From contig JAWMAR010000252.1 of assembly GCA_036785375.1 (NCBI GenBank), positions 2,232,001-2,296,000 on the forward strand: a stretch of 64,000 nt of DNA. Reading direction: 5' to 3'. Origin of the DNA: Leucoraja ocellata (lineage: Eukaryota). This document shows positions 1,621 through 18,489 of this stretch, piece after piece. The position numbers were made by a program, and so were the translations under genes. The notes under the pieces are model-generated. The model did no database searches. It was not told where the DNA came from and saw only the letters and a program-made list of their open reading frames with translations. The first letter of the stretch is position 1; the number at the start of each line of letters is the position of its first letter.

Positions 1621-1818
1621 TCCATAGCTTTTTCTGAAATAGCATAGGTAGTATTTTATCCTTTGCCTTAAGATACCTGTTGCTGGTAGTCCAAGTCTCA
1701 GAAGCATATAGGACTGCAGGGTATATTTTAACTATGTGATGATTACGCATACATGCTGTCCTAGCATAGATCTTAATGCCAATTCTACCAATTTTATAAT
1801 GTTTTCTCCTTTATAAAG

Positions 1819-1967
1819 CCAAACCCATGTATCCCGGGCTGTGTCTGCCCTGACGGTTTGGTGGAAGATTCCAGTGGCGGATGCATTGCACCATCTCAGT
1901 GTCCTTGTGTATTTGGAGGTGAAACCTTTGGGCCTGGAGAAACAATCAAAAGGGACTGCAATAAGTG
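1819..1967 (+). CDS. Mucin exon, TIL/E module
   Basis: aag|CCA...TG|gtgag; [50 protein letters not shown]. Confidence 0.92.
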
Positions 1968-4900
1968 GTGAGCTTAGACAAATGTCAAACAAAATAACAG
2001 CCCTTAACTGTATAGAATTGTAGATATTATTATATCTTCTCTATTGTAGCACATGCAAAATTGGCACATGGGAATGTACCAATGATCCATGTCCAAAGAC
2101 ATGCCATGTTTATGGAGATGGACATTACATCACCTTTGATGGAAAGCGATACACTTTTGATGGTAACTGTGAATATATCTTTGTTGAGGTAAGATTGAGA
2201 ACGTCACATTCAATGTGCATTTTTTGTCTTTTTCCTTTAGTTGTAAACATATATGATAATACTTAAATTCAAAATCTTTACATTCTTTCTAAGTTTAGGC
2301 AGACATGCAAAAGATTATTTTTAATTGATATAATGATTGTAATCAGTATTTAAAATATTTTACTGAAGTATTTATTAAAAATTTCTCTAAAGCATAACTT
2401 GTTCATTTGAAATGGGTCGGTCCTAGCAACTACTTTTGACATTTGGTCGGCCTTTGGTTGTTGTTATTGATGGCTGTTGGAGGAGAGGGAGTAATACATG
2501 TGTGTAACTGGAATTGTTCACACATTTGCTTGTTCAATCTCTCAAAGAATTTCAGACTTCAAAATTATGATAGATGGCATTCTAAACATGAAGCAGCATA
2601 TTAGATTGCATGTTTAAAAGTCAAAATTGTCTCAGACACAATCAGCAAGAATGGTTTTGAGTGTAATCTGAAATCTCTGATATAGCTTCTGAGATATAAA
2701 TGAGAAGGTAACAATGAACAAAATGTATTAATCAGATTAAATGATCTGAGATTCTATAGTATGAATAGTTCTTCAGCAAACCAAAAATGCTTTTGAAAGT
2801 GTCAACTATCACTTGGCGCTAAGGGTTTCAAGAGCTGTTATTATGACCTTGTCTTTTCCCCTTCCTTTGTCCTTATATTTTCTTGAGCTCAGAGGATAAT
2901 GAAAATATATATAAATCTTGATGAACTATAAATTATACTGGAATTATTGAGCTGGCTCTGCCATGTCAGATTATGATAGGTTAAAATTATGCTGCACAAA
3001 ATTATTCAAGTTATCTTAATTTTAGGACGGATGTGTGCGAGAGATTGGCACATTCCAAATACTGACCGAGAGTGTTCCCTGCTGTGAAAATGGAGTGACA
3101 TGTTCAAGAAACATCAGAATCATATTTGAGGTATATGCGCTTTGATTTATTACAATTAGAATGCGTAAGATGGCGTTTTAAAATAAAGCATCCAAATGGA
3201 TCCTTGCAATGATTTAATTTAGTTTATTCAGCATGTTATAAATCAATGTATTTTCAAATATATTCTTATAGGATAAAGAAATAATTCTGTTGAGTGGAAA
3301 TAGAGTGAGTGAAGTATCCCTTGGCAAAAACCAGTGCACGGAAAATTTATATACAATTCACAACGTTGGACTTTACTTAGTCATAACATTTTCCAATGGG
3401 ATAACTGTGATATGGGACAAAAATACAAGATTTTCAATCACATTAGACCCCAGATGGAAGGTATGTATGATTTTAAATTAAAATGTTTCCTTAATTTCTG
3501 TATATTGATAGAGAAAACATAATGAGAAATTGTAAAACAAAACTTGTGTGGCATAATTCATATGAGAAACATGGAAGTGGTGTGAAAAATGTTTAACTAA
3601 ATGTACGTAGACAATTGAGCTGTAGATGGGATGGACAACACAGAATTTGAAAATAAATGATGGACACATTCCCCGAGCAATGCAGCATTGGATTCAAAAT
3701 AAATGAGATGAAACTATGGTTTTTCATTTATTATTGGGCTCATTATCAGCTATTCAACTTTAAGAAACGGCTGAACAATAACCGACAATTCTTTGTATAA
3801 GGACAATATTAAATAGTACTTTGAAGCATTGCCAGCAGTTTAATAAGAATTGTGAAACGGGTAGGGAGCTGCATTAATTAACAATAGAGGAAAACTGGCA
3901 CAAAATAACTATGGAGAACGGAGTTGAGCACAGATGTCCACAAAATTCTTAAAAGGTGCACTAGAATGGAAAAGATGTGAGGGGCAATGGTTATTATGGT
4001 CATTCTTCCATTATGTTAAAATTCAGATGCAGCCCTAGGCCTTGGTTGCACAAAATTAAGTATTGCACATTTTATCTTCACGTCAGCTTGATAGGTCTAT
4101 CACATAATTGAGGGAGGCTCGAATTAGAGATTTATTGACACTGTGGTGACACACTAACACTCTAGCAGATCTCTTACATGTGGTGGTAGGAGGAAATGAG
4201 AAGGAAGAGAAGGGAAGGGATCAGAATGGTGCTATTATGCAAGGGAAGGTTGAGACGAGCAGATGAAGGGTTGACAGAGTCCAGTAAATCAGCTGAGAAG
4301 GGATCATTGTGATGGGGAGAGGAGGGGGGGGGGGGGGTGATAGGGGGTGATAGGTGCAGATTAATGGGTCAGGGTATTAGTGGAGATCGACATTGGGTAG
4401 TACATTAAATTCGACAGGTTTTAAGTCATTATCTGACTTTCATGCAGCTCTCCTGGAATTTCAAAATGGTAAAGAGGGCGTTGCCTTATTGATTAAGGAG
4501 AATGTCACGGCATTAGTCTGAGATGACATTACTGACAGTTCAAAAAACTATATGAAGCTTTATATGAAATGATAAATCACTTAAATGAAAGCAAAAATAT
4601 GAAAGCAAGAGGAATTGTTTTAAAATTACCCTTTTGATGCCATCTATTTTCTAGAGTTTGCAAGTACTGTATATATTTAAAGACAACAGTTCACATACAG
4701 ATTTTGAATTCGAATTTATGAGGTTGACATTTCATTCAAAGGATGGCTTGATGCTTTGAGAAGTTAAACAGTGAAGTAGAAATGTGTACAATGTCTGTAT
4801 ACATGGTAAAGATCACGAGGATTCAAAGCCAAGAGTTTGTTGAAAATAAGGAAGATAAAATATAATTGGATCAGTTAATAGTCTTGAATTATTCTTCATT

Positions 4901-7900
4901 TTAAATTATACATTTAGCAGTTTAATTTTCTTTTATATACTTGTGCCAACTTTTATCATGAAAAGTTGTGACACTGAACTTATGGTGAAGGCCTTCAGCC
5001 AATAGATTAGTTAATCAATCCAGAACTGCCCCAAATCCCCATCTTGTATAATTTAGCAGTTTATTGAAAATAATTTGAATTTTCAACCATACTAATCCAT
5101 AGGTAATGAAGAGTGAAATAACTTGCTTTATATATTGCCATTCACAAACTAAATTATAACCTCTTTATAGCTAATGTCTTTGGTTCTGGTTGTGATGTAA
5201 AACCCTCCTGATGCTTCGCTCTCTCTATGATTGCGTTTATTTTTGGAGTAGACAAAAGCTGTGCTTCTGAAGCGAGGAACACTGAAAATTATGTAAAAGA
5301 TCAACGACTAGGTCAAAAATTAACAAATTAAATAATTGTAATGATTTAATTGATTAATTGTGTTTGTATGGTGCCAAACTGGATCTCAAGAAGAGGCTAG
5401 GTGGTTTATTGCAATGAAAGATTGATAATTCTGACATTTGTATTGGGTTAACTTGGAAAAAGTAGGACATTTGAATTGTGAATTTAGAATAGTAACCATT
5501 ATTTTGCTTTTTTTACACACATAAGAATAAAGTTTGTGGCCTTTGTGGAAATTTCAATGAAAACATTGAAGACGACTTAACGACGAAGGGGAACTCCTTG
5601 GTGACCAGCTTTATGGCCTTTGGGAACAGTTGGAAGTCCATGCAGTCATGCTCTGACACAGTAAACGAAATATACCCATGTGATAACAATCCATATTGTT
5701 TAGCATGGGCTCAGAAGAGGTGCAGCATAATTACTGGCCCAGTCTTTCAAGCTTGTCATAAAATGGTAAGATGCCAGTTAAATTTGAAATTTAAATAGAA
5801 TCCATAATGCAATCATGATTTCTGACATTGTGGCTCTTTATCAGGTTAACCCAATCCCATTTTATGATGCTTGTGTCCAAGAAGCTTGTGTTTGTGATAT
5901 GGAGGGAAAATACCAGGGTTTATGTACTGCTATTGCTGTGTACGCAGAGGCTTGCAACAAAGCTGATGTTTGCATTCGCTGGAGAACCCCTGAATTCTGC
6001 CGTAAGTCTAAACTTCTGTATTCCTTGTAGAGAACAATTAAGGTATAAGAGCTCATCAACATACTTTTATAGATAGCAGAACACATTGATCCGCAGAGTA
6101 CCATAATTATTCAGATTGTTGTTCCAGATTCCCGCATCTGTAGACTCCTGTGTTCTCAAAGTCCAGATTGATGCTTGGTGCTGTTTAAAATCTGTGCCAT
6201 TTTGTAATTGCAATAAAGAAACCATATTTCCTTCTTCAATTCCATGTCTCTTTTGACACAAGATCCTGCATCTTCTACTTGGTTCAGTAAACAGTGCACA
6301 ATTAATTATCCGAAGGTATCCTCCAAACAGAATCAATGTTTCAAGAAGATTGGCCTTTATTGCCTTCCATCACAGTGAAGAATGTGGGGAATTCGCTGTG
6401 ATGGATGTTTATGTTAACTTTTATGTAGTTGTGTGTCTTATTGCTTTTTTAAAAATATGGTTGTATGGTAATTTGAATTTCACTGCACCTCAATTGGTAC
6501 ATGTGACAATAAACTGACCTTGATACCTTGATTCTGTTTGGAGGATACTCTCGGATAATTATTTGTGCACTGTTTACTGAATCACTTTTTGGCTCACGAT
6601 GGATAACATATCAAAACTGATTTTGATCCTTGCAATGAAAGGCAGGTCATTTTGATCCTTTCAATGAAAGGCAGGTTACTATCACTGTACACTTTTAATC
6701 CTTGATTCATCAAGCAAAATACATTCAGAACCTCACGCAGCAGAATATTCCAACACCTGCTAATCTGCAACAAATCCACAATATTTGTTTAATTAAATCT
6801 CGTCTGTTTGCTTATGAAGGAGATTTGTGGCTATTAATTTGAAGATGATGTTCTGCCAACATTCAGTCTCTATCCTCCAAGTTTGGCATATGCTTAAGAA
6901 TAAATGCACATAGCATTCCATCTATCAATGTTACTGTTGGTCCGCTTTATCTAAAAATATATACTTTGCAGGTTGATTGTATTGGTGCTCATGACAATCC
7001 TCCTTTACCTACTACATAAGTCAACTCATTTATCAACATGTATACTCTTTGGAATAGGAGAATAAATTTGTCCGAGTATCTGCCATGGTAAGGACAGATG
7101 TCTGAGAGTCCAACACTCCAGTTCACAGACCAATATCTATAAAATAAATATACAGTGACTGTTTGCTATGCAATATTGTGCTCATTTTGGGCAATGAATA
7201 ACCAAGCCAAAATCACAATTTGATTGTTTCTGTTATTCTCCAGCTGTATTCTGTGACTATTATAACAGTCTTGGTGACTGCAGTTGGCATTATCAGCCGT
7301 GTGGAACAACAACAACAAAAACTTGCACAAGGAAAAAGTACTCTGCAAGTCTAGAAGGTGCTGTTTAGAATTTATTCAAATATGTCACAATCATTTTACA
7401 ATTTTTTAAAACAATACTTTTAGGTTAGACTAAGTTTCAGTTCTTAAAAATAAAAATCATAATAATCAATTCATTATGGAATTCATTACACATTATACTC
7501 AGTTAAAGTATCAATATATTTTGATAAATCTTCATAAAAAAATCATGCTTATACTGTCATTCGTTGGAGATTTGTGCATATTTAGAATGGAGATACATTT
7601 TATTGGTGTCAAGATCTCCTGCATTTACAATATTCCTGTTTATCTTGATGGTAATTTTTACTTCTCACTATTTTAGGTTGCTATGCAAAGTGCCCAAATA
7701 ATGCACCTTACTTGGATGAAAATATTATGAAATGTGTTACACTACCACAGTGCACATGTTATAATGATGGGAGAATATTACAACCTGGTCAAACAACAAT
7801 AAGTGATTGTGAAGAATGGTAAAGTAGCCACATCAGTAAATGTATTGATCACTGTTCTAATATTGAAAGAAAAAACAAATTAAATGCCAAAAAACTGGGT

Positions 7901-10900
7901 TTTACAAATATTTCCTTAAAAATGCCATAAATAATTTTTGAGCTTTAAATAGTGAAATTAGCTATTTTAATAATTGAAATATAAAATGCAGTCTAGGATA
8001 ATTTCACACCTGAACAAAGGCCAAAATAATTGTTTTCAAATTCCTTCCCACCCACCACCCTCCCTCACCTACTTCAGTGACTTTCATCTACAGTTTGCAG
8101 TTATATTCATTTTCTGTTCCTTCAACAAAAAGTTCTTCATTTTCTTTATTCTCTCTGTCCAACAATAATCAGTGACTATTCTATCTGAGAGTCCATCCCT
8201 TAATAATTATTCTTCATTGTTACACTATATTGTAATATTTATTGTGAATTATGAACATTAAGTGAAGGCTATTGCTCCTTTAAAGGTTAACTCCCCCATG
8301 AGTTGCAACAATAAAGTGCAGGTGGTCTGTGATTACCCATGAATAAACCAACACAATTTATTAAAGCTTCTTATGTCTCATTCTGCTATTAGTAAAGAAT
8401 CTATTACCTTGACCATACATTGCCTCCATTACATTTTTAAATCATCCTGTGGACCTTGGTTTTTGGTGGAGATTTCAGAGCTAACAGAGATTTTACCTTT
8501 CCAATTCTTGCTTTGTATCTATTTGTTGTCCATCTTTCCAGAGAGGTTCAACCATTGTAACACAATATGTCTTTAGACTAGTTTGTAGTTCTTTAGTTTG
8601 TTTTATTTGTAACATCTTTCTTTTTGTTGACAGTACATGCCATCATGGAATCACTACTTGCGAAAGTAAGTAATAACTTTCAGCATTCATCTGTTAAAGG
8701 AATGCAGTATTGTTTTGCGATAAAGGAGAATGTTTGCTTATTTGCAGTGCAATATTAAAAGTATCAGCAGTTGTAGTTATATCTTCAGTTTAAATATTTC
8801 CAAAACATTACTTTTCAAATGCCAGATGTGAAAAATTAGCACATCTGTAGATGTTGGTGAGAGTTGTTGAGGACATGCCAAACTTGCTAAGCCTTCTGAG
8901 GAAGAAGAGGCATTGGTGTGCTTTCATGGCCTTTGCTTCGATACGGCTAGTTCAGGACAAGGTTCTGGTGATATTTACTGCTAGGAACTTGAAGCTTTTC
9001 AACCATCTCTATTTTGGCAGTGTCAATGTATGCGTAGCATTTCGGTGCTGTCTCCTCCCATCCCCCCGCCCTCGGGCTCCTCCTCCTCCCCTTTTTCCTT
9101 CCTTCTCCCCTCCCACCCCCCATCAGTCTGAAGAAGGGTTTCGGCCCGAAACGTTGCCTATTTTCTTCGCTCCATAGATGCTGCTGCACCCACTGAGTTT
9201 CTCCAGCAATTTTGTGTACCTTCGATCATCCAGCATCTGCAGTTCCTTCTTGAACACTATGTGTAGCACTTCACCTGAATTCGGAAGTTGATCACTATCT
9301 CCTTTGTCTTGTTGACATTGAGAGAAAGATTATTAACGTGACACCAGGTTACAAGGTTCTCAATGTCCTTCCTGTACTCTGTCTCATCATTATTTGGTAT
9401 CCATGCCACTACGGTGGTGTCACCCATGAATTTGTAAATTGAGTTTGATTTGTACGAGGCTGCACAATCGTGGTGAATAAGCAGTAATGAAGGGGGCTGA
9501 GAACACATTCTTGTGGAGGACCCATATTGGGGATTATTGTAGAGGGTGATTTGTCACCCACAACTTGTACTGAAGTTATAGCAGAGCTAAGAAACACTCA
9601 TGCATGCAGGCAAAATGTACCCAACAAAGATGACCCCTGCATTATAGAGTGATTGCATTTGCTGTAATCGTGATTTTCTGCAATGCAATCTCCTTTTCCT
9701 CTTGAATCCCATGTCATAAGAGAATGTTTTGCTCTCATTTTAAACCAATTTATCAGTGATGACAAGAGAAGCCACCATTCTTATTTAACATTTGAGACCA
9801 ACATTAGACCCAGATGAAACAACAAGTTTCATCAATTTTTAATAACTCAAAATTGTTTGGCAATAAGATTTGAACACTAGTCATTTTGTTGATTGGGTAA
9901 GGAGTCCCAGCTGAGCCACCCACCTTTGAATTGCTCCTTCCAGTCCTATTGTAGCGGCAAATTATCATATATTTCAGGTAATTAGCACGCTAGCCGCTAA
10001 ATGGATGAGAATGGTTGAAGGGGGTGTCTTCGAAACACATGCGAGCTCACTCACAGAGTCCTTCAGAGCATCTTCATAGATATGGATTCAAAACACAGTT
10101 GTTTGATGAGTAAATGCTTTATTGCTGATAGAAAACAGTAAGATACATCCAAATTTCTTACGACTCGTTACTACAATCTTCATTGAACTCCAGCTTATTA
10201 CCTTAAACATTAGAAAACTCCTTGTGTCTCCGTAACACTGGCATGATTTGGCATGTGGCCCGCATGGTAGAAGGGTTAACCTTCCCCATCGTCTCTCCAA
10301 ACTAATCTAAAAACTAAACTTCTGCGCAAGCATCTAAGCTCCAACCACGCCCAAAAACACGTCATAAATCCCACCCACAACATAACGGGCAGTCTAAAAT
10401 TTAAAGGCATATGCCATCATCAATGACCTACAAAACAAGCCAAATGGCCACAACACCGATGATATGTGAACTGATGCCTCAGACCGTAGCACTGCCGGGC
10501 TCTTAATTTGTGAGTCGTACTGTCTGATGCACGGCTCACTGAACGTGAAAGGGGGTTTATTTGTGTTTATTTGGCAAAGGAATGGAGTGGGTTTATTTGG
10601 GAAAGGAATGGAATTCAAGCGTTGGGATTCATGGGAGAAAAGTGACATAGAAGGAATGGTGCTGTCAGTGTGGAGTTTGCTCACCTCCCTGTGACCACGT
10701 GGCTTTCCTCCGTGTCCTCCTACATCTCAAAGATGGTGGGTTAGTTGGTTCATTGGCCTCTGTAAGTTGCTCCTAATGTGTAGGGAACAAATGAAAAAGT
10801 GGGATAACATAGAACTAATGTTAATGGGTAATCGATGGTCAGCATGGACTCGGTGAGCCAAAATGCCTGTTTTCATGCTGTATCTTTAAACTAAACTAAT

Positions 10901-13900
10901 GAGTTAAAGCTCGGTGGCTGGGAGAAGTAGAGTAAACATTGAGGGATTACTTTAAGGAGATGGCCAGGGCTACTGCAACTCCCCTGCACTCAGCGACTGC
11001 ACTCTGAGACATCTGTTTATGTGTTTTTAGTCTGACATGGCTGTGACTGCCAACCCCATTGACACAGTGACAAAACATAAAACTTGGTGTTTTGTTTGCA
11101 TTTATATATATATATTTATTTGTTTATTTTCTATTTTGGTAAGTGCAAATTTTAATCTGCATATCAAATGTTTTGGTAGTTGATTACGAATTTGATAAGG
11201 CATTTTCCGTTAATTAAATGACATGGTTGTTGCCTTGAGGAAATATCAGAAAGAGATAAGGACTGAAATGGTATTGTGTACATGTTCATAACAACAGGAA
11301 TAAAGACCACAACTGTTCCATCTACAACACTGTTGACCACAACTCCACTTACATCAACTTCAACAATGTCTTCACCAACCACTAGCCCAGGTAAGGTGAT
11401 ATTAGTTACAGGTTATGGCATGTAATATTTACAATATGATAAGAACAGATTTCAAATGATCAGAGGTGAAACTGGACATTGGTATGTCTGTACTTTTGCA
11501 CATAATAATTATAAATGGGATTCATAAGCTGGTTATCGCTTCCAACACGTTTCATGATGTTGATGATCAGTAACTTTAATCTGCATACTGCACCTGGGTC
11601 TCAAAGAGATGACAAATATTGTGTAAAAAAGGCAAATGAGAGTCTCTCCTGGCTATATAAGGCAAATGTATGATTCAGTCAAGTAGGTCTCATCTCCATT
11701 CACATTCACAGCTCCTGTCTCATAGGAACAAGCCCAAAAACAACTGTAGGTGTAAGAGGCAATTTGAATCAATAAAGTCTGAGCTTTGGCTCATGTTTTA
11801 AATTCACTTGTGAAAAGCACATAAGATCAGGGTTTCATGTTGCCAGCATGGCTAACTGTTGATAAGAATAATGAATGTATATCAGGAACATCCTCGCATA
11901 GAACAGTACAGCACAATAACAGGCCTTTTGGTTCATATGATGCTAAATTCAACTAATCTCCTCTGCCTGCAACTAATCTCTGCCTGCACAATTGTCCATT
12001 TTGGGGCTGGGCAATGTTTAGAGAGGATTTGTGTGTGGTGGGTGTTGAGTGCCTGGCCCACTGCTGAGGGTGGCGATGGAGGCAGATACATTGTGCTGTT
12101 TAAAAGACGTTTGGATAGGTCACCTGGATATGCAGGAAATGGAAGGTATGTTTTATGTACTGGCAGATAAGGATTGGTCTTGGCATCATGTTTGGCACAG
12201 ACATAGTGGGTTAATGGACCCGTTCCTGTGCTGTATTGTTCTCTGTTCCTTTTGAGTAAAATTTACACTTTTGTTGTTGGATCTCAATGAAAATATGAAG
12301 TAAAACAGATGTGACATCAAACTGGCTTTTTGCAATGTAAAGTTCATGAAATGATTTGTGATGCATGGCTTTTGTATACATTGTGGCCAATGATCTACCA
12401 GATACATACTAAAAAGGGGGTCCCAGGGTAATTGGCAAAAGAACCAAAGGCAAAATTAAAATATAAATGACTTTAACCACAAATTTGCAATAATTTGGAA
12501 TGTGCTGTTGGTAAGAGATATAATTTATGAGCATATTCAAGTTTACCTTTTAAAATGAAATTACAAAGTCAGATAATTACCTAAAACCTGCTGAATTTAA
12601 TGTACTACCCAATGTCCTTGGTCTCCGCTAATACACTGACCCTTTAATCTGCATTAACCGCCCTCCATCCCATCACAATGATGTCTTCTCAGTTGACTTA
12701 CTGGACTGTCAACCCTTCATTTCAAACCTTCCCTTACCCTGCATAATAGCACCATTCTGATCCCTTCCCTTCCCTTCCATCTCATTTCCTCCTACTACCA
12801 CACATACAACATCTGCTCGACAGTTAATATGTAACCACAGTGTCAGTAAATCTCTAATTCGAACCTCCCTCAATATTGTGATAGACCTATCAAGCTGACA
12901 TGAAGGTCAAATCTACAATACCCAATTTCTTGCAGCCAAGGCCTTGGGTTACATCTGAATATTTATATAATGGAAGGATGATCATAATAACCATTACCAC
13001 TCACATATTTTCCATTCTACTGCACCTTTTAATAAAAAATCTTGTTGACACCCTGTTCAACTCTGTTTTCCACAGTTATTTTCTGCCAGTTTCGCTATAT
13101 TGTTAAATAATGTTGATATTGTTAAATTTTGCAGCTCCCTACCCTTTTCACAAATTCCCTTTAAACTGATGGCAGTGCTTCTAAGTACTATTTAATATTG
13201 TCCTTGTACAAAGAAATGTACAATTACATTTACATTAACATAAACAGTTAAATTTACTCTTGGGTCCTAATGCCATATGCGTAATTGAAAGATGAGGCAC
13301 TGTAACTTACACTGAGTACTGAACTTTATTGGAACAGTGTTGGAGATACAGAGTGTAAATGTAGGGAACATTCAAATAACAGACACTTTAATTCTCATCT
13401 TCTATATTACTGAAAACCTGATCTTGACCGCATTTGGCCCACTGTGCTGCGATTTCCGAGAGAACGCCGCCACCTACGGCCGTCATTTTTGGCCACCTCG
13501 CTCAGCGCCCCCCTCCGCCTTCTGGGACCAGAGGATTTTTCCCATCGATGAAAAATCAGAGATATATTAATGTTTTAATAAAATTCCCCATTCTCTCTGC
13601 TGCCCCCGCTGGAGGCAAGGGGGAGGGGAGAGGGACTATAAAACCCGGAAGTGTCGTGCTTCACACATTCTCTGCCAGACCCAGGAAGCGAGTTGAAACC
13701 ATATGGCAATAAATTGTGCCCATCTTCTTCCGATGAAATTACTAATATTGAGTGCCAATTTGCTGACCATCCTAATTGGCCACTAAGTGCATCGCCAGAT
13801 CCTGTGACCTGCATTAAAGACATAGGATTGATCTGCACGTTCTCTGGAAATGCTATTCGCCAATTTTGTAGTGACTACAGAATTAGAGTGTGCTGCGAGC

Positions 13901-14230
13901 CAACTGAGACTACAACTGTCCCCACGACTACAACTGAGTCTACCACCAGTCCCACGACTGGTGAGTGATACCTTCTCCAGTAGTTGTTAACAGTCATTTT
14001 AAAAGAAGGACAATAATGTCCAAAGTATGCCCAGCTTGTGCTGGAATTTAACCAAATACAAATGTTGCTGCTGAATGTTGCGATGATTATAAATTTGCAA
14101 TGACTTTTGTTGAAGTTATTCCACAACATCTTTTAATTTCTGCAATATATGCTGATTTTGTTACTACTCTCTCAAACGTGCCTTACTTCAAGTTGAATAT
14201 AAAGGACATGTATGCATTTGTTTACAGAAG

Positions 14231-14277
<47 letters not shown>

Positions 14278-17200
14278 CCCACGACCACCACAGAATCTAC
14301 CACCAGTCCTACAACTGGTAAGTGACAACTTCTCTCAACGTACCCTCATGGCTTTTTTTTTAATCACAGCTGAGATCATACACTCATGTTCCCATCCTTG
14401 CTTCAAGTTCCGCAATTTCATAATTCCATTTTAGAGTCTGTGGGTTCAGTCTTGATGGTCCTCTGATGCAGGATAGGGATAGAGCAGCACTGACAATACT
14501 GTGCTATTCTGCTTGAGATTTTGAGCTGGGTTTGTGCGGGTGCTGTCGTGAATGAGGTTTATCTTCTGGCCAATAGTAAAGAACAGGAAAATGTATCCAC
14601 TACCATGAATACTAATGATAATTACAACAACATTTGTCAGGAAATATTTTTAAGCTCTATAGTTTATAGGATGAAGGTATGAATAAGTAGTTTATGGTGT
14701 TCCCTACATTTCAGTTGTGACCATATTTTAGTACAATTTCTTGCTAGGTCTTTGCAAGATAGGAAGTAATTAAAGGAGTTTATCTCCACTTTACACAATC
14801 TCTTTTGAAATAGTCAAAATTACCGTCTGCATTTCTTGGTCATTCAAAATCTACGATTCAACATGGATGATTTAATTGTCCATGAATTTGTTTCCCTTTC
14901 GAAGAAACAGCTACAACAACCAGCACAAATGGGTCCACAACCATTTCCACAACTGGTGGGTGGTGATATTTTAATTTGCAATTTTTTTTACACAAGCTTC
15001 CCTATACATATACATATTATTTTAATTCAAAACAAATGACTTGGTAGAAATAAATGCTGAGAAGCTCAGCGGGGGCAACATCATCTATGGAGCGAAGGAA
15101 ATTAGCATTTCGGGCCGAAACCCTTCTTCAGACCCGTTTCAGCCCGAAACGTTGCCTATTTCCTTCGCTCCATAGATGCTGCTGCACCCGCTGAGTTTCT
15201 CCAGCATTTTTGTCTACCTTCGATTTTCCAGCACCTGCAGTTCCTTCTTAAACAAATGTAATGGCTTTATTATTTTCCAGAAGAAACAACTCCCACGGTG
15301 ACACCAAGCACCACCACCACCTACACAACAGGTGAGTGATCACCTCTGTCAGTAGGTTATTACCAGCCGTTACGTTCAGTCATTCAATTTCAACTTCCGC
15401 TTGCCCTCAGTTGAATCATTCTTCAAGTTGCATGTAATGGTTTTATTTGCAGAAAAAACAACAACTACAACAGAGCCAACCACAACCGAGTCTACCACCA
15501 GCCCCACAACTGGTGAGTAATGCCTTTTATCAATCATTTTAACACAAATATGCTCAAATACAGTACCACTCGCAGGTTGTGACAATGTTGATCACTCTTG
15601 CCATGTGCAACACAATTTTACCTCAGCAGCAGCAGGATGTTCTCGAATTTCAAAGTCTTGAGGTACAAACTAGAATGGTGCTATAATACAATGCAAAGGA
15701 ACAACAGTAATGCCCAAAGTATGTGCTGGAGTTGAAACACATACAAATATTATTGCTGAATGTAGTATGGATTGTATATTTGCAGTGATTATGTTGAAAT
15801 ATTATTGCACAACTTCTTTTAATTTGTGCAGTATATGTTCATTTTGTTACTCCTCTCTCAAATGTGTAATTCTTCAAATTGAATGTAAAGGACATGTATG
15901 TATGTGTTTACAGAAAAAACTACAACAACAGCGACAACAACAACAGAATCTACCACCAGTCTCACAACTGGTGAGTGATAACTACTCTCAATGTAAACCC
16001 ATGGGTTTTTATATCACAGCTGAGCTCATAAACATCATTTTCAGTTGCACTCCTTTCCCCTCCTTTCTTCAATGTCACTTCATCCATAACAAGTGAGTGA
16101 TCGCCTCTGTCAGTATGTACTTACTGGCTGTTGGGTTTGGTTGTTCAATTAAAACTTCCACTCGTCTTCAGTAAAAGTCTAATAATTTGACCTATCCACT
16201 ACAATTTCCAATAACAAGCATTGGTCTAAATATTGAATGAAGGGATCATTCTAAATTTTCCAGTACTTGTAAAATATAATCAGTCTCAAATGTTAATTCT
16301 TAATAGATGCTGCTTGACCTACTAAGTACTTCTAGTCATTTCTACATTCATTTGTCTTATATCTGAAATCTGCTTGAGCGGTATGAGAATTGAGTTGACT
16401 GTGATTTGAGTTTGTTTGTTATTTTCCAGAAGAAACATCAACTGTGACATCAACCAGCATTCCTTCCACAACAGGTAAGTTTTGGCTTTTTCAAGATATA
16501 TTTATTTTGCAATCTCAACTTATTACAATGAAAATCCATTTGTTTTCTTCTCTACCATCATCATCATCGTTGAAAACATCAACGTGCACGAGCCTTACAA
16601 TCCTATGTACGACAGTGATCACAACTTCTACTGAAGTGTGGATGGCCGTTGGCCCGCTAGGAGCTCATCTGTCCTTTGACAGGTCTTGTTTTTGGTCCTT
16701 CAGGGGGTTCACAGCCTCCTCCTCATCTGGCAAATCAGGCGGGGGAGACAGTTTAGTCGCCGACTATCCAACCATGGAGCAGGTAGCACCGGATTACACG
16801 GTACCCGTGGCGGGGGGTACTCCCCCTATTTTCTCTAACTTTTCGGTATATTAGACCCTGTTCCCTGTTCCCCATTTTTACTTTCATAAGTAAAATGGTC
16901 AGTCGCTCACAATGGCAGCTACTTTTATCATCATGCGGGAATTTGAACTCACTTCTTTATAATAATGTGCTAGGTAACTTCATTATGAGGGCATGCGAGG
17001 AGGCTGTTTGACCCATTGGGTCCTTTCCAACGGTACAATGTCATGTCCCCTGCTTATTTCCCTGGAACTGTACAACATATTCTCTCTCACATCCACTCTC
17101 CTTTGACTCTTTTGGTATTGGCCTATACAAAGGGATAATTTACAATAGCCAATTAATCTACCAGCATGTCTCTGGGTGACAGGGGGAACCCAAGGAAGTA

Positions 17201-18489
17201 CAGGTAGCCAATATAAGCTCCATACAAACAGCACCTTATATCAGGGTTGAACTTGGATCTCTCAAGCTTTTAGGCAAAGATGAGACATAGCCTTTCACAG
17301 CAGTGGTCTTCCTTTATCTTATTTATCCTGGAGCTGCTACCTTTTTGCCATTTCCCTCTTGTCCACCAATTAATCTCTCCTGCATATATGGTATATCTTT
17401 TCACCATATACAGTACGTAGCATGTTTAAAGGTGATATGGTGAGGCAGCGCAACTACTCCAATAATGTCCTTCAATAACACGCCGAGACCAACCCATCAA
17501 AGTGGAAAGAATATCTGGTTGTTAAAATCATGCAATAGTTAGTGCACAGCTGCAGTCAGCTGCCTGATAAGTGACATCTCACGTTTGTGCTGTATGCTTT
17601 TTCCCCATTGTTCTGTTCTGCACTGGCAATTACTGTTTCCTTATCTGATACTTGAGGTTGTATCTTAGTTTAGATCAATCAACAGTTCCCCAAACATATT
17701 GTTATTATTCCCATTTTACTGGTCCCATTCCCATTTAAACTGTAATTTGGAAGATTAATTTTAATGCACAACCATGTTTCTCAAAGCTTGTTTTTTATAT
17801 TTATGTTTATATTTTCCACTCTGTATTGTTTTATACAAGTTTGCCTTATGTTTTCTTTCTTTACATTACAGTGCCAGTCTGTTTGGGTGTATGGTCTCCT
17901 TGGTCTAATAAGCATACACCATCAGCGTTATCTCCAGATGATTATGAATTGTTGAAACCATATGGCAATAAATTGTGCCCATTTTCTTCCGATGAAATTA
18001 CTAATATTGAGTGCCAATTTGCTGACCATCCTAATTGGCCACTAAGTGCATCGCCAGATCCTGTGACCTGCATTAAAGACATAGGATTGATCTGCACGTT
18101 CTCTGGAAATGCTACTCGCCAATTTTGTAGTGACTACAGAATTAGAGTGTGCTGCGAGCCAACTGAGACTACAACTGTCCCCACGACTACAACTGAGTCT
18201 ACCACCAGTCCCACGACTGGTGAGTGATACCTTCTCCAGTAGTTGTTAACAGTCATTTTAAAAGAAGGACAATAATGTCCAAAGTATGCCCAGCTTGTGC
18301 TGGAATTTAACCAAATACAAATGTTGCTGCTGAATGTTGCGATGATTATAAATTTGCAATGACTTTTGTTGAAGTTATTCCACAACATCTTTTAATTTCT
18401 GCAATATATGCTGATTTTGTTACTACTCTCTCAAACGTGCCTTACTTCAAGTTGAATATAAAGGACATGTATGCATTTGTTTACAGAAG

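Follow-up and report, generated by a model that had tools for sequence, protein, structure and literature searches.

The 64-kb window, meaning the whole stretch of DNA analysed here, covers the middle of a skate gel-forming mucin gene on the forward strand. The VWD3 and C8 exons are located at 1.8–8.7 kb and VWD4 starts from 60.9 kb. Fourteen CysD (PF13330) exons of the gene are found in the window, organized in seven units of ~4.25 kb followed by seven units of ~2.45 kb. The 13 intact copies all open at a cat(t/c)acag acceptor. Exon lengths from 11298 to 18219 are divisible by three in nine of nine cases, so that the phase is kept. The intact skate copies share the fold of MUC2 CysD1 (6TM6), MUC5AC CysD7 (8OV0) and MUC5B (8OER), and the model of the second copy has a pLDDT of 91, with Z scores of 10–12 to the MUC2 and MUC5AC CysD structures. 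The features that are of importance for the first copy are collected in Table 1.

Table 1. Features around the first CysD exon of the mucin gene (positions in the window).
Feature	Position	Strand	Characteristics
Unique PTS exon after the E3 exon	11298..11390	+	93 nt; phase 1/1; CAG/GTAAGG boundaries; open frame
Helitron-like interspersed repeat of very high copy number, 5′ fragment	13401..13691	+	recognized by read depth; starts with TC; 3′ terminus absent
Candidate cryptic 3′ splice site in the repeat	13660..13678	+	branch-like TTCAC (A at 13663); 14/18 pyrimidines; CAG
Predicted hybrid exon	13679..13960	+	282 nt; phase 1/1; open; 13 nt of repeat and 269 nt of CysD/PTS remnant
First CysD exon, remnant	13692..13960	+	without acceptor and first 79 nt
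Next PTS exon after the remnant	14228..14317	+	phase 1/1; target of an in-frame skip from 11390 to 14228
45-nt PTS exon ahead of intact CysD copy 2	16430..16474	+	counterpart before copy 1 missing
Second CysD exon, intact	17872..18219	+	348 nt; 8 Cys; WxxW; PF13330 positions 1–88; reference for the lost part

The nearest named proteins are three mucin-6-like models of Rhinoraja longicauda, with 90.5–90.9% identity over nine D3-E3 exons; the other eight batoid proteins compared reach 68–82% over the D3-E3 exons. These ray sequences are automated RefSeq models, some of them partial. The three Rhinoraja models of this mucin (P0160, P0268 and P0269) are near-identical and share a chromosome; each contains three intact CysDs and matches the D4 exons of the window poorly. 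Neither the predicted junction peptide of the locus nor the CysD motifs of the species were found in any of the compared proteins, and no annotated model of the locus is among them. Word-based protein searches with the CysD remnant gave no match, and the listings of our literature search contained no publication on the locus.

In the assembly, the first CysD exon is clipped. Copy 1 matches the 13 other CysD exons only from 13692 on, where the identity sets in abruptly, and intact exons begin 79 nt earlier, in agreement with the sequence-only reading, which had noted the loss of the acceptor and of the first ~80 coding nucleotides. The remaining part shows no difference from copies 6 and 7, one or two from copies 2–5 and 25–28 from copies 8–14. 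It still matches PF13330 with 36.9 bits (cut-off 22.4), over profile positions 25–88 of 88. The missing 79 nt were sought on both strands of 8667–13691, with best scores of 20 and 19, compared to shuffle maxima of 30 and 26. An insertion that split the exon and left its head upstream was rejected, as neither strand of this region contains the lost 79 nt. Also rejected was an inversion with unit sequence left behind upstream of the element (0 of 16 tests above the shuffle maximum).

The clipped exon is located at the CysD1 position, just after E3 and a short PTS segment, as in mucin CysD1. The first CysDs of cartilaginous fish contain eight cysteines in all eight cases counted, compared to ten in MUC2. 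The remnant can be aligned to MUC2 only from residue 1319, whereas the intact copy aligns from residue 1302. The AG at 13677–13678 opens the predicted hybrid exon, which is indeed in frame, with the phase and length proposed from the sequence, and has an intact GTGAGT donor. Its first codon encodes D, followed by PGSELKPYG, and DPGSE stands in place of the first 27 residues. As also claimed in that first reading, it would encode seven cysteines instead of eight and lacks the WxxW motif.

The sequence directly upstream of the remnant was examined by mapping reads of four of 24 listed runs, three of DNA and one of polyA RNA (organism D, ~6% of it read), to positions 11200–14020 at 90% likeness. 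Summed depth over 13385–13669 amounts to 0.5–1.1 million in all three DNA runs, compared to 27–53 in the covered unique flank. The depth of the repeat thus exceeds that of its flank by about four orders of magnitude, a ratio of summed depths and not a copy number. Because of this depth, 13401–13691 is a high-copy interspersed repeat. Its repeat origin is established, and it is derived from a transposable element and not unique sequence, as had been supposed. It is also GC-rich, as described before (0.52, compared to 0.38 for the window), and its observed/expected CpG ratio is 0.77 versus 0.34. No second copy of it is present within the 64-kb window. Two other stretches of the window, 12565–13219 and 3785–4440, are fragments of old repeats that are 78% alike and lie 8 kb apart, inverted relative to each other.

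In 30 RNA reads from other loci, the mixed flanks end just before 13401 and the loose ends start at 13401, which therefore places the 5′ end of the repeat at the TC at 13401. The flank consensus of these other copies ends in A with an agreement of 0.46, whereas the copy in the window follows a T. No CTRR motif was found in 13640–13700, and the copy is cut at 13691. Family contigs carrying the 13660 variant reach ~13690, an end that we infer; since the family sequence extends this far, the repeat would be the source of the acceptor and of at least most of the 13 added nucleotides.

Based on the 5′ TC and the tendency towards a preceding A, the element can be described as Helitron-like, but is not assigned to the Helitrons. 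HLE1 Helitrons, as presented in parts of two reports, start with a 5′ TC, insert between A and T, and end with a 3′ hairpin followed by CTRR (PMC11417382; PMC4224331). The skate repeat resembles 5′ fragments of non-autonomous HLE1 elements in its TC start at a sharp 5′ boundary, its very high copy number and, less clearly, the preceding-A tendency. The window copy differs in that it follows a T and, cut at 13691, lacks the 3′ hairpin and CTRR. Pattern scans for copies of the element gave none in viral contigs and, in a contig of bacterial appearance (L001), a single 20-nt match attributable to chance. Terminal inverted repeats or a target-site duplication at the element were discarded, as only short chance repeats were found, and so was identity with an RNA family. 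A rolling-circle origin of the CysD array was likewise rejected, since its units hold no copy of the element.

The Rhinoraja orthologue provides an order of exons for comparison. The sequence-only reading had suggested the orthologous locus as a check, and Rhinoraja keeps, in this order, E3, an orthologue of the unique PTS exon (25 of 30 amino acids match), a match to the 45-nt exon and a CysD that is intact and has 8 Cys; the linker measures 50 amino acids. The 45-nt exon ahead of copy 2 matches Rhinoraja from residue 1219 (13 of 14 amino acids), between the match of the unique PTS exon and the first CysD. No counterpart of it was found ahead of copy 1 in 8667–13691, and its intron is also gone. 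As this upstream exon and intron are lost too, insertion alone cannot explain the lesion, which carries the signature of a deletion. The original idea that the transposable element simply replaced the head of the exon is therefore not retained. The span matching the lost part, measured on unit 1, is 1521 nt, and the deletion likely removed ~1.5 kb, plus the 3′ part of the element itself.

An assembly misjoin at the edge of the tandem array would give the same picture, and we consider it very improbable. The 13691/13692 junction is bridged by none among the contigs listed, and two different kinds of repeat meet at the join. As a rule, however, a misjoin requires long repeats in common. The two sides of this join share no long homology with an intact copy upstream of 13692, and a break in short contigs is to be expected where a very high-copy repeat meets an exon present in 14 copies. 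Moreover, the flank and the 5′ edge of the element are reproduced in other runs.

The order of the two events can be approached through the other organisms. A contig of the sister organism B, covering 12743–13442 with a flank divergence of 0.57%, crosses the 5′ edge of the element at the same site. The contig from another sample of organism A stops at 13415, 15 nt into the element, too little to count as bridging, and the sampled A individual shows 6 differences from the window in ~2280 flank positions. Organism D, with a flank divergence of 3.3%, has no depth over 12910–13384, a hole that itself proves nothing; its one collapsed CysD contig, with 136 unaligned letters before 13692, fits intact copies. 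As the 5′ edge is common to organism B, the element likely predates the deletion. The simplest reading would be an insertion before the A-B split and a deletion after it.

The deletion itself appears to be recent. The remnant carries A at 13774, as in six of seven long units, and G at 13890, as in all seven, where the collapsed contigs of B and D have G and T, and the first private substitution of unit 1 is at 15081. The dating of insertion first and deletion later rests on collapsed contigs, and the same pattern could result from gene conversion reaching up to the junction.

The candidate acceptor was scored with a crude matrix trained on the 19 acceptors of the window. The site at 13679 scores 1.1, whereas the native CysD acceptor reaches 6.6 and the median is 3.4. 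Among 118 AGs the site takes 8th place, and three of the 19 real acceptors score lower. No other AG from 13136 up to the remnant scores as high, and the site has a branch-like motif at −16 and an AG-free zone of 25 nt, and a second in-frame AG follows at 13685. By these values the acceptor is weak to moderate. Among breakpoints simulated in the retained fragment, 5 of 232 leave an equally good in-frame AG, a post hoc count confined to that fragment of the element. Weak acceptors occur naturally in this gene, at 5526, 1819, 14905 and 11298 (three of them AAG sites, and 11298 pyrimidine-poor), which means that such sites can function in it. Among the runs listed for 1800–11400 there was none of RNA, although the length of that query may have concealed some. 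The polyA RNA run of organism D, which is another species, gave zero reads on 11298–11390 or 13765–14020. It contains no spliced read joining to 13679, but as it shows no expression of the gene, this counts neither for nor against use of the site.

The transposon-derived site at 13679 is a candidate acceptor whose use is probably minor, given that the frame would survive skipping of the exon as well. According to the part of a study dealing with acceptor loss, the two usual outcomes are skipping of the exon or activation of a cryptic 3′ splice site (PMC2095810). The same two outcomes are expected at the skate locus, which differs from these systems, as far as presented there, in that the lesion is a kilobase deletion within a phase-symmetric array of 14 exon copies, where both outcomes would keep the frame.

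Insertion of transposable elements is a known source of splice sites, and Alu exonisation is a case of donated cryptic sites. In bats, as described in an excerpt on such fusions, Helitrons were fused to ZMYM4 and SGSM3 transcripts via donated splice sites (PMC4224331). The skate element is comparable to the bat Helitron and Alu cases in being a sense-oriented intronic element that offers a candidate 3′ splice site. It differs in that it would add only 13 nt and would rescue an exon with a deleted acceptor, splicing being predicted here. Splice sites supplied by transposable elements are already well known, and the locus is another instance.

True exonisation, with the AG of the repeat as main acceptor and most transcripts carrying a tolerated first CysD with seven cysteines and no WxxW, is possible but must be regarded as doubtful. 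The exon is open and in frame with an intact donor, the site is the best local AG and has its branch-like motif, the remnant shows no decay, and only the few simulated cuts mentioned above leave a site this good. On the other hand, the score is far below that of the native acceptor, and homogenisation of the array would by itself keep the remnant identical. Furthermore, according to part of a review citing other work, Trp substitution disturbs the secretion of MUC5AC and MUC5B (PMC8433626), which argues against a tolerated WxxW-less domain. Skipping, which the sequence-only reading had offered as a harmless alternative, is considered more likely than exonisation. Majority inclusion would still be plausible from the best local AG, the branch-like motif, the native donor and the three weaker real acceptors.

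If the exon is included, the protein would likely be affected in its fold. In the truncated model, the WxxW strand and the strand at 23–26 are lost. From the intact to the truncated model, the mean pLDDT falls from 91 to 79 and the pTM from 0.81 to 0.61, and the best Z to solved CysDs drops from 11.9 (rmsd 2.3, 93 aligned) to 6.0 (rmsd 2.5, 70 aligned), a fall in scores that follows partly from the shorter chain. The AlphaFold models were obtained here without disulfide pairs. From these models, an included domain likely folds poorly, and its odd number of seven cysteines implies one unpaired cysteine. The label of “C-mannosylation motif” given earlier to the lost WxxW was overstated: the motif is lost, but in the parts of two studies that concern them, the tryptophans of recombinant MUC2 CysD1 and CysD2 are reported as unmodified, with no mannosylation (PMC7599080; PMC3195396). 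An included exon would be a natural WxxW-less CysD and would bear on the need of the motif in folding and secretion.

If the exon is skipped, the splice from 11390 to 14228 would be in frame, with 149 PTS codons ahead of the first intact CysD. The linker between E3 and the first CysD would be extended from 50 to ~150 amino acids, and 13 intact CysDs would be left. Linkers of 488 and 857 amino acids are found in the Hypanus and Hemitrygon models, and no CysD was detected in the Pristis X11, Narcine and Mobula models. In human MUC2, CysD1 on a linker of ~43 ± 10 amino acids is required for filaments in vitro, according to the section of the study describing them (PMC7599080), and MUC5AC filaments are reported, in part of another, to form without a tethered CysD1 (PMC11912381). 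The Rhinoraja linker is within the MUC2 range, and the loss of CysD1 may therefore not be harmless. Skipping would amount to a naturally lost CysD1, with the position and linker length on which MUC2 filaments depend in vitro, and a comparison with the CysD1-keeping Rhinoraja would test the need for CysD1 in cartilaginous-fish mucins.

The lesion might also be a recent, mildly harmful or private allele, in which inclusion gives a misfolded domain, skipping drops the filament-docking CysD1, and others keep the intact exon. We regard this as unlikely. It would be in line with the young appearance of the remnant, with the flank differences of the sampled A individual and the end points of the A and B contigs at 13415 and 13442, and with the MUC2 requirement for CysD1 as reported in the excerpt cited (PMC7599080). 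However, an alternative allele was not seen among the contigs listed, and related ray mucins do without a proximal CysD.

In the reading that we prefer, with somewhat better than even confidence, a young deletion cut through an older intronic element and left an in-frame cassette that is mostly skipped and frame-safe in its array of 14 copies. A Helitron-like element would first have been inserted in the intron. A later deletion of ~1.5 kb would have extended from inside this element into the first CysD exon, removing the acceptor and 79 nt. The leftover in-frame AG would make the remnant an optional cassette, mostly skipped, and either splice outcome would stay in frame. A leaky acceptor out of frame would likely have been purged, which could explain the preserved frame without a new function. 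Since 13 intact CysDs are left, the skip is in frame, and related ray mucins lack a nearby CysD, skipping is most likely tolerated.

A bolder version of inclusion can also be imagined, in which the Helitron acceptor rescues the exon in most transcripts and the secreted CysD1, now a module with seven cysteines, a free thiol and no WxxW, adds a new covalent cross-link to the mucus gel and has become fixed in the lineage. This appears quite improbable. If true, it would be a natural experiment on CysD1 in a living lineage.

Several other characteristics of the array were observed. Between 13692 and 59500, the CysD exons of the seven 4.25-kb units and those of the seven 2.45-kb units differ by ~10%, and the collapsed CysD contig of organism D is nearer to the short-unit type. 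The long units differ pairwise by 5–28 substitutions, similar to or under the A-B divergence, which is consistent with fast concerted evolution. An exonic (AAC)n tract encoding poly-Thr, at 14232–14277 and in its equivalents, differs in length between the long repeat units, from ~9 to 15 triplets, with the frame kept. The mucin-2-like model of Leucoraja erinacea (P0072) starts inside a CysD, just past the WxxW region. Being a 46%-identical paralogue, it was left out of the comparison, and its start probably reflects the annotation and not a parallel lesion. In unit 1, all seven private substitutions are located inside a 184-nt stretch, 15081–15264, within or at the edge of one repeat, presumably SINE-like, and the other six long units agree at these seven sites. 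The pattern points to ectopic gene conversion, with a different copy of the repeat as the donor.
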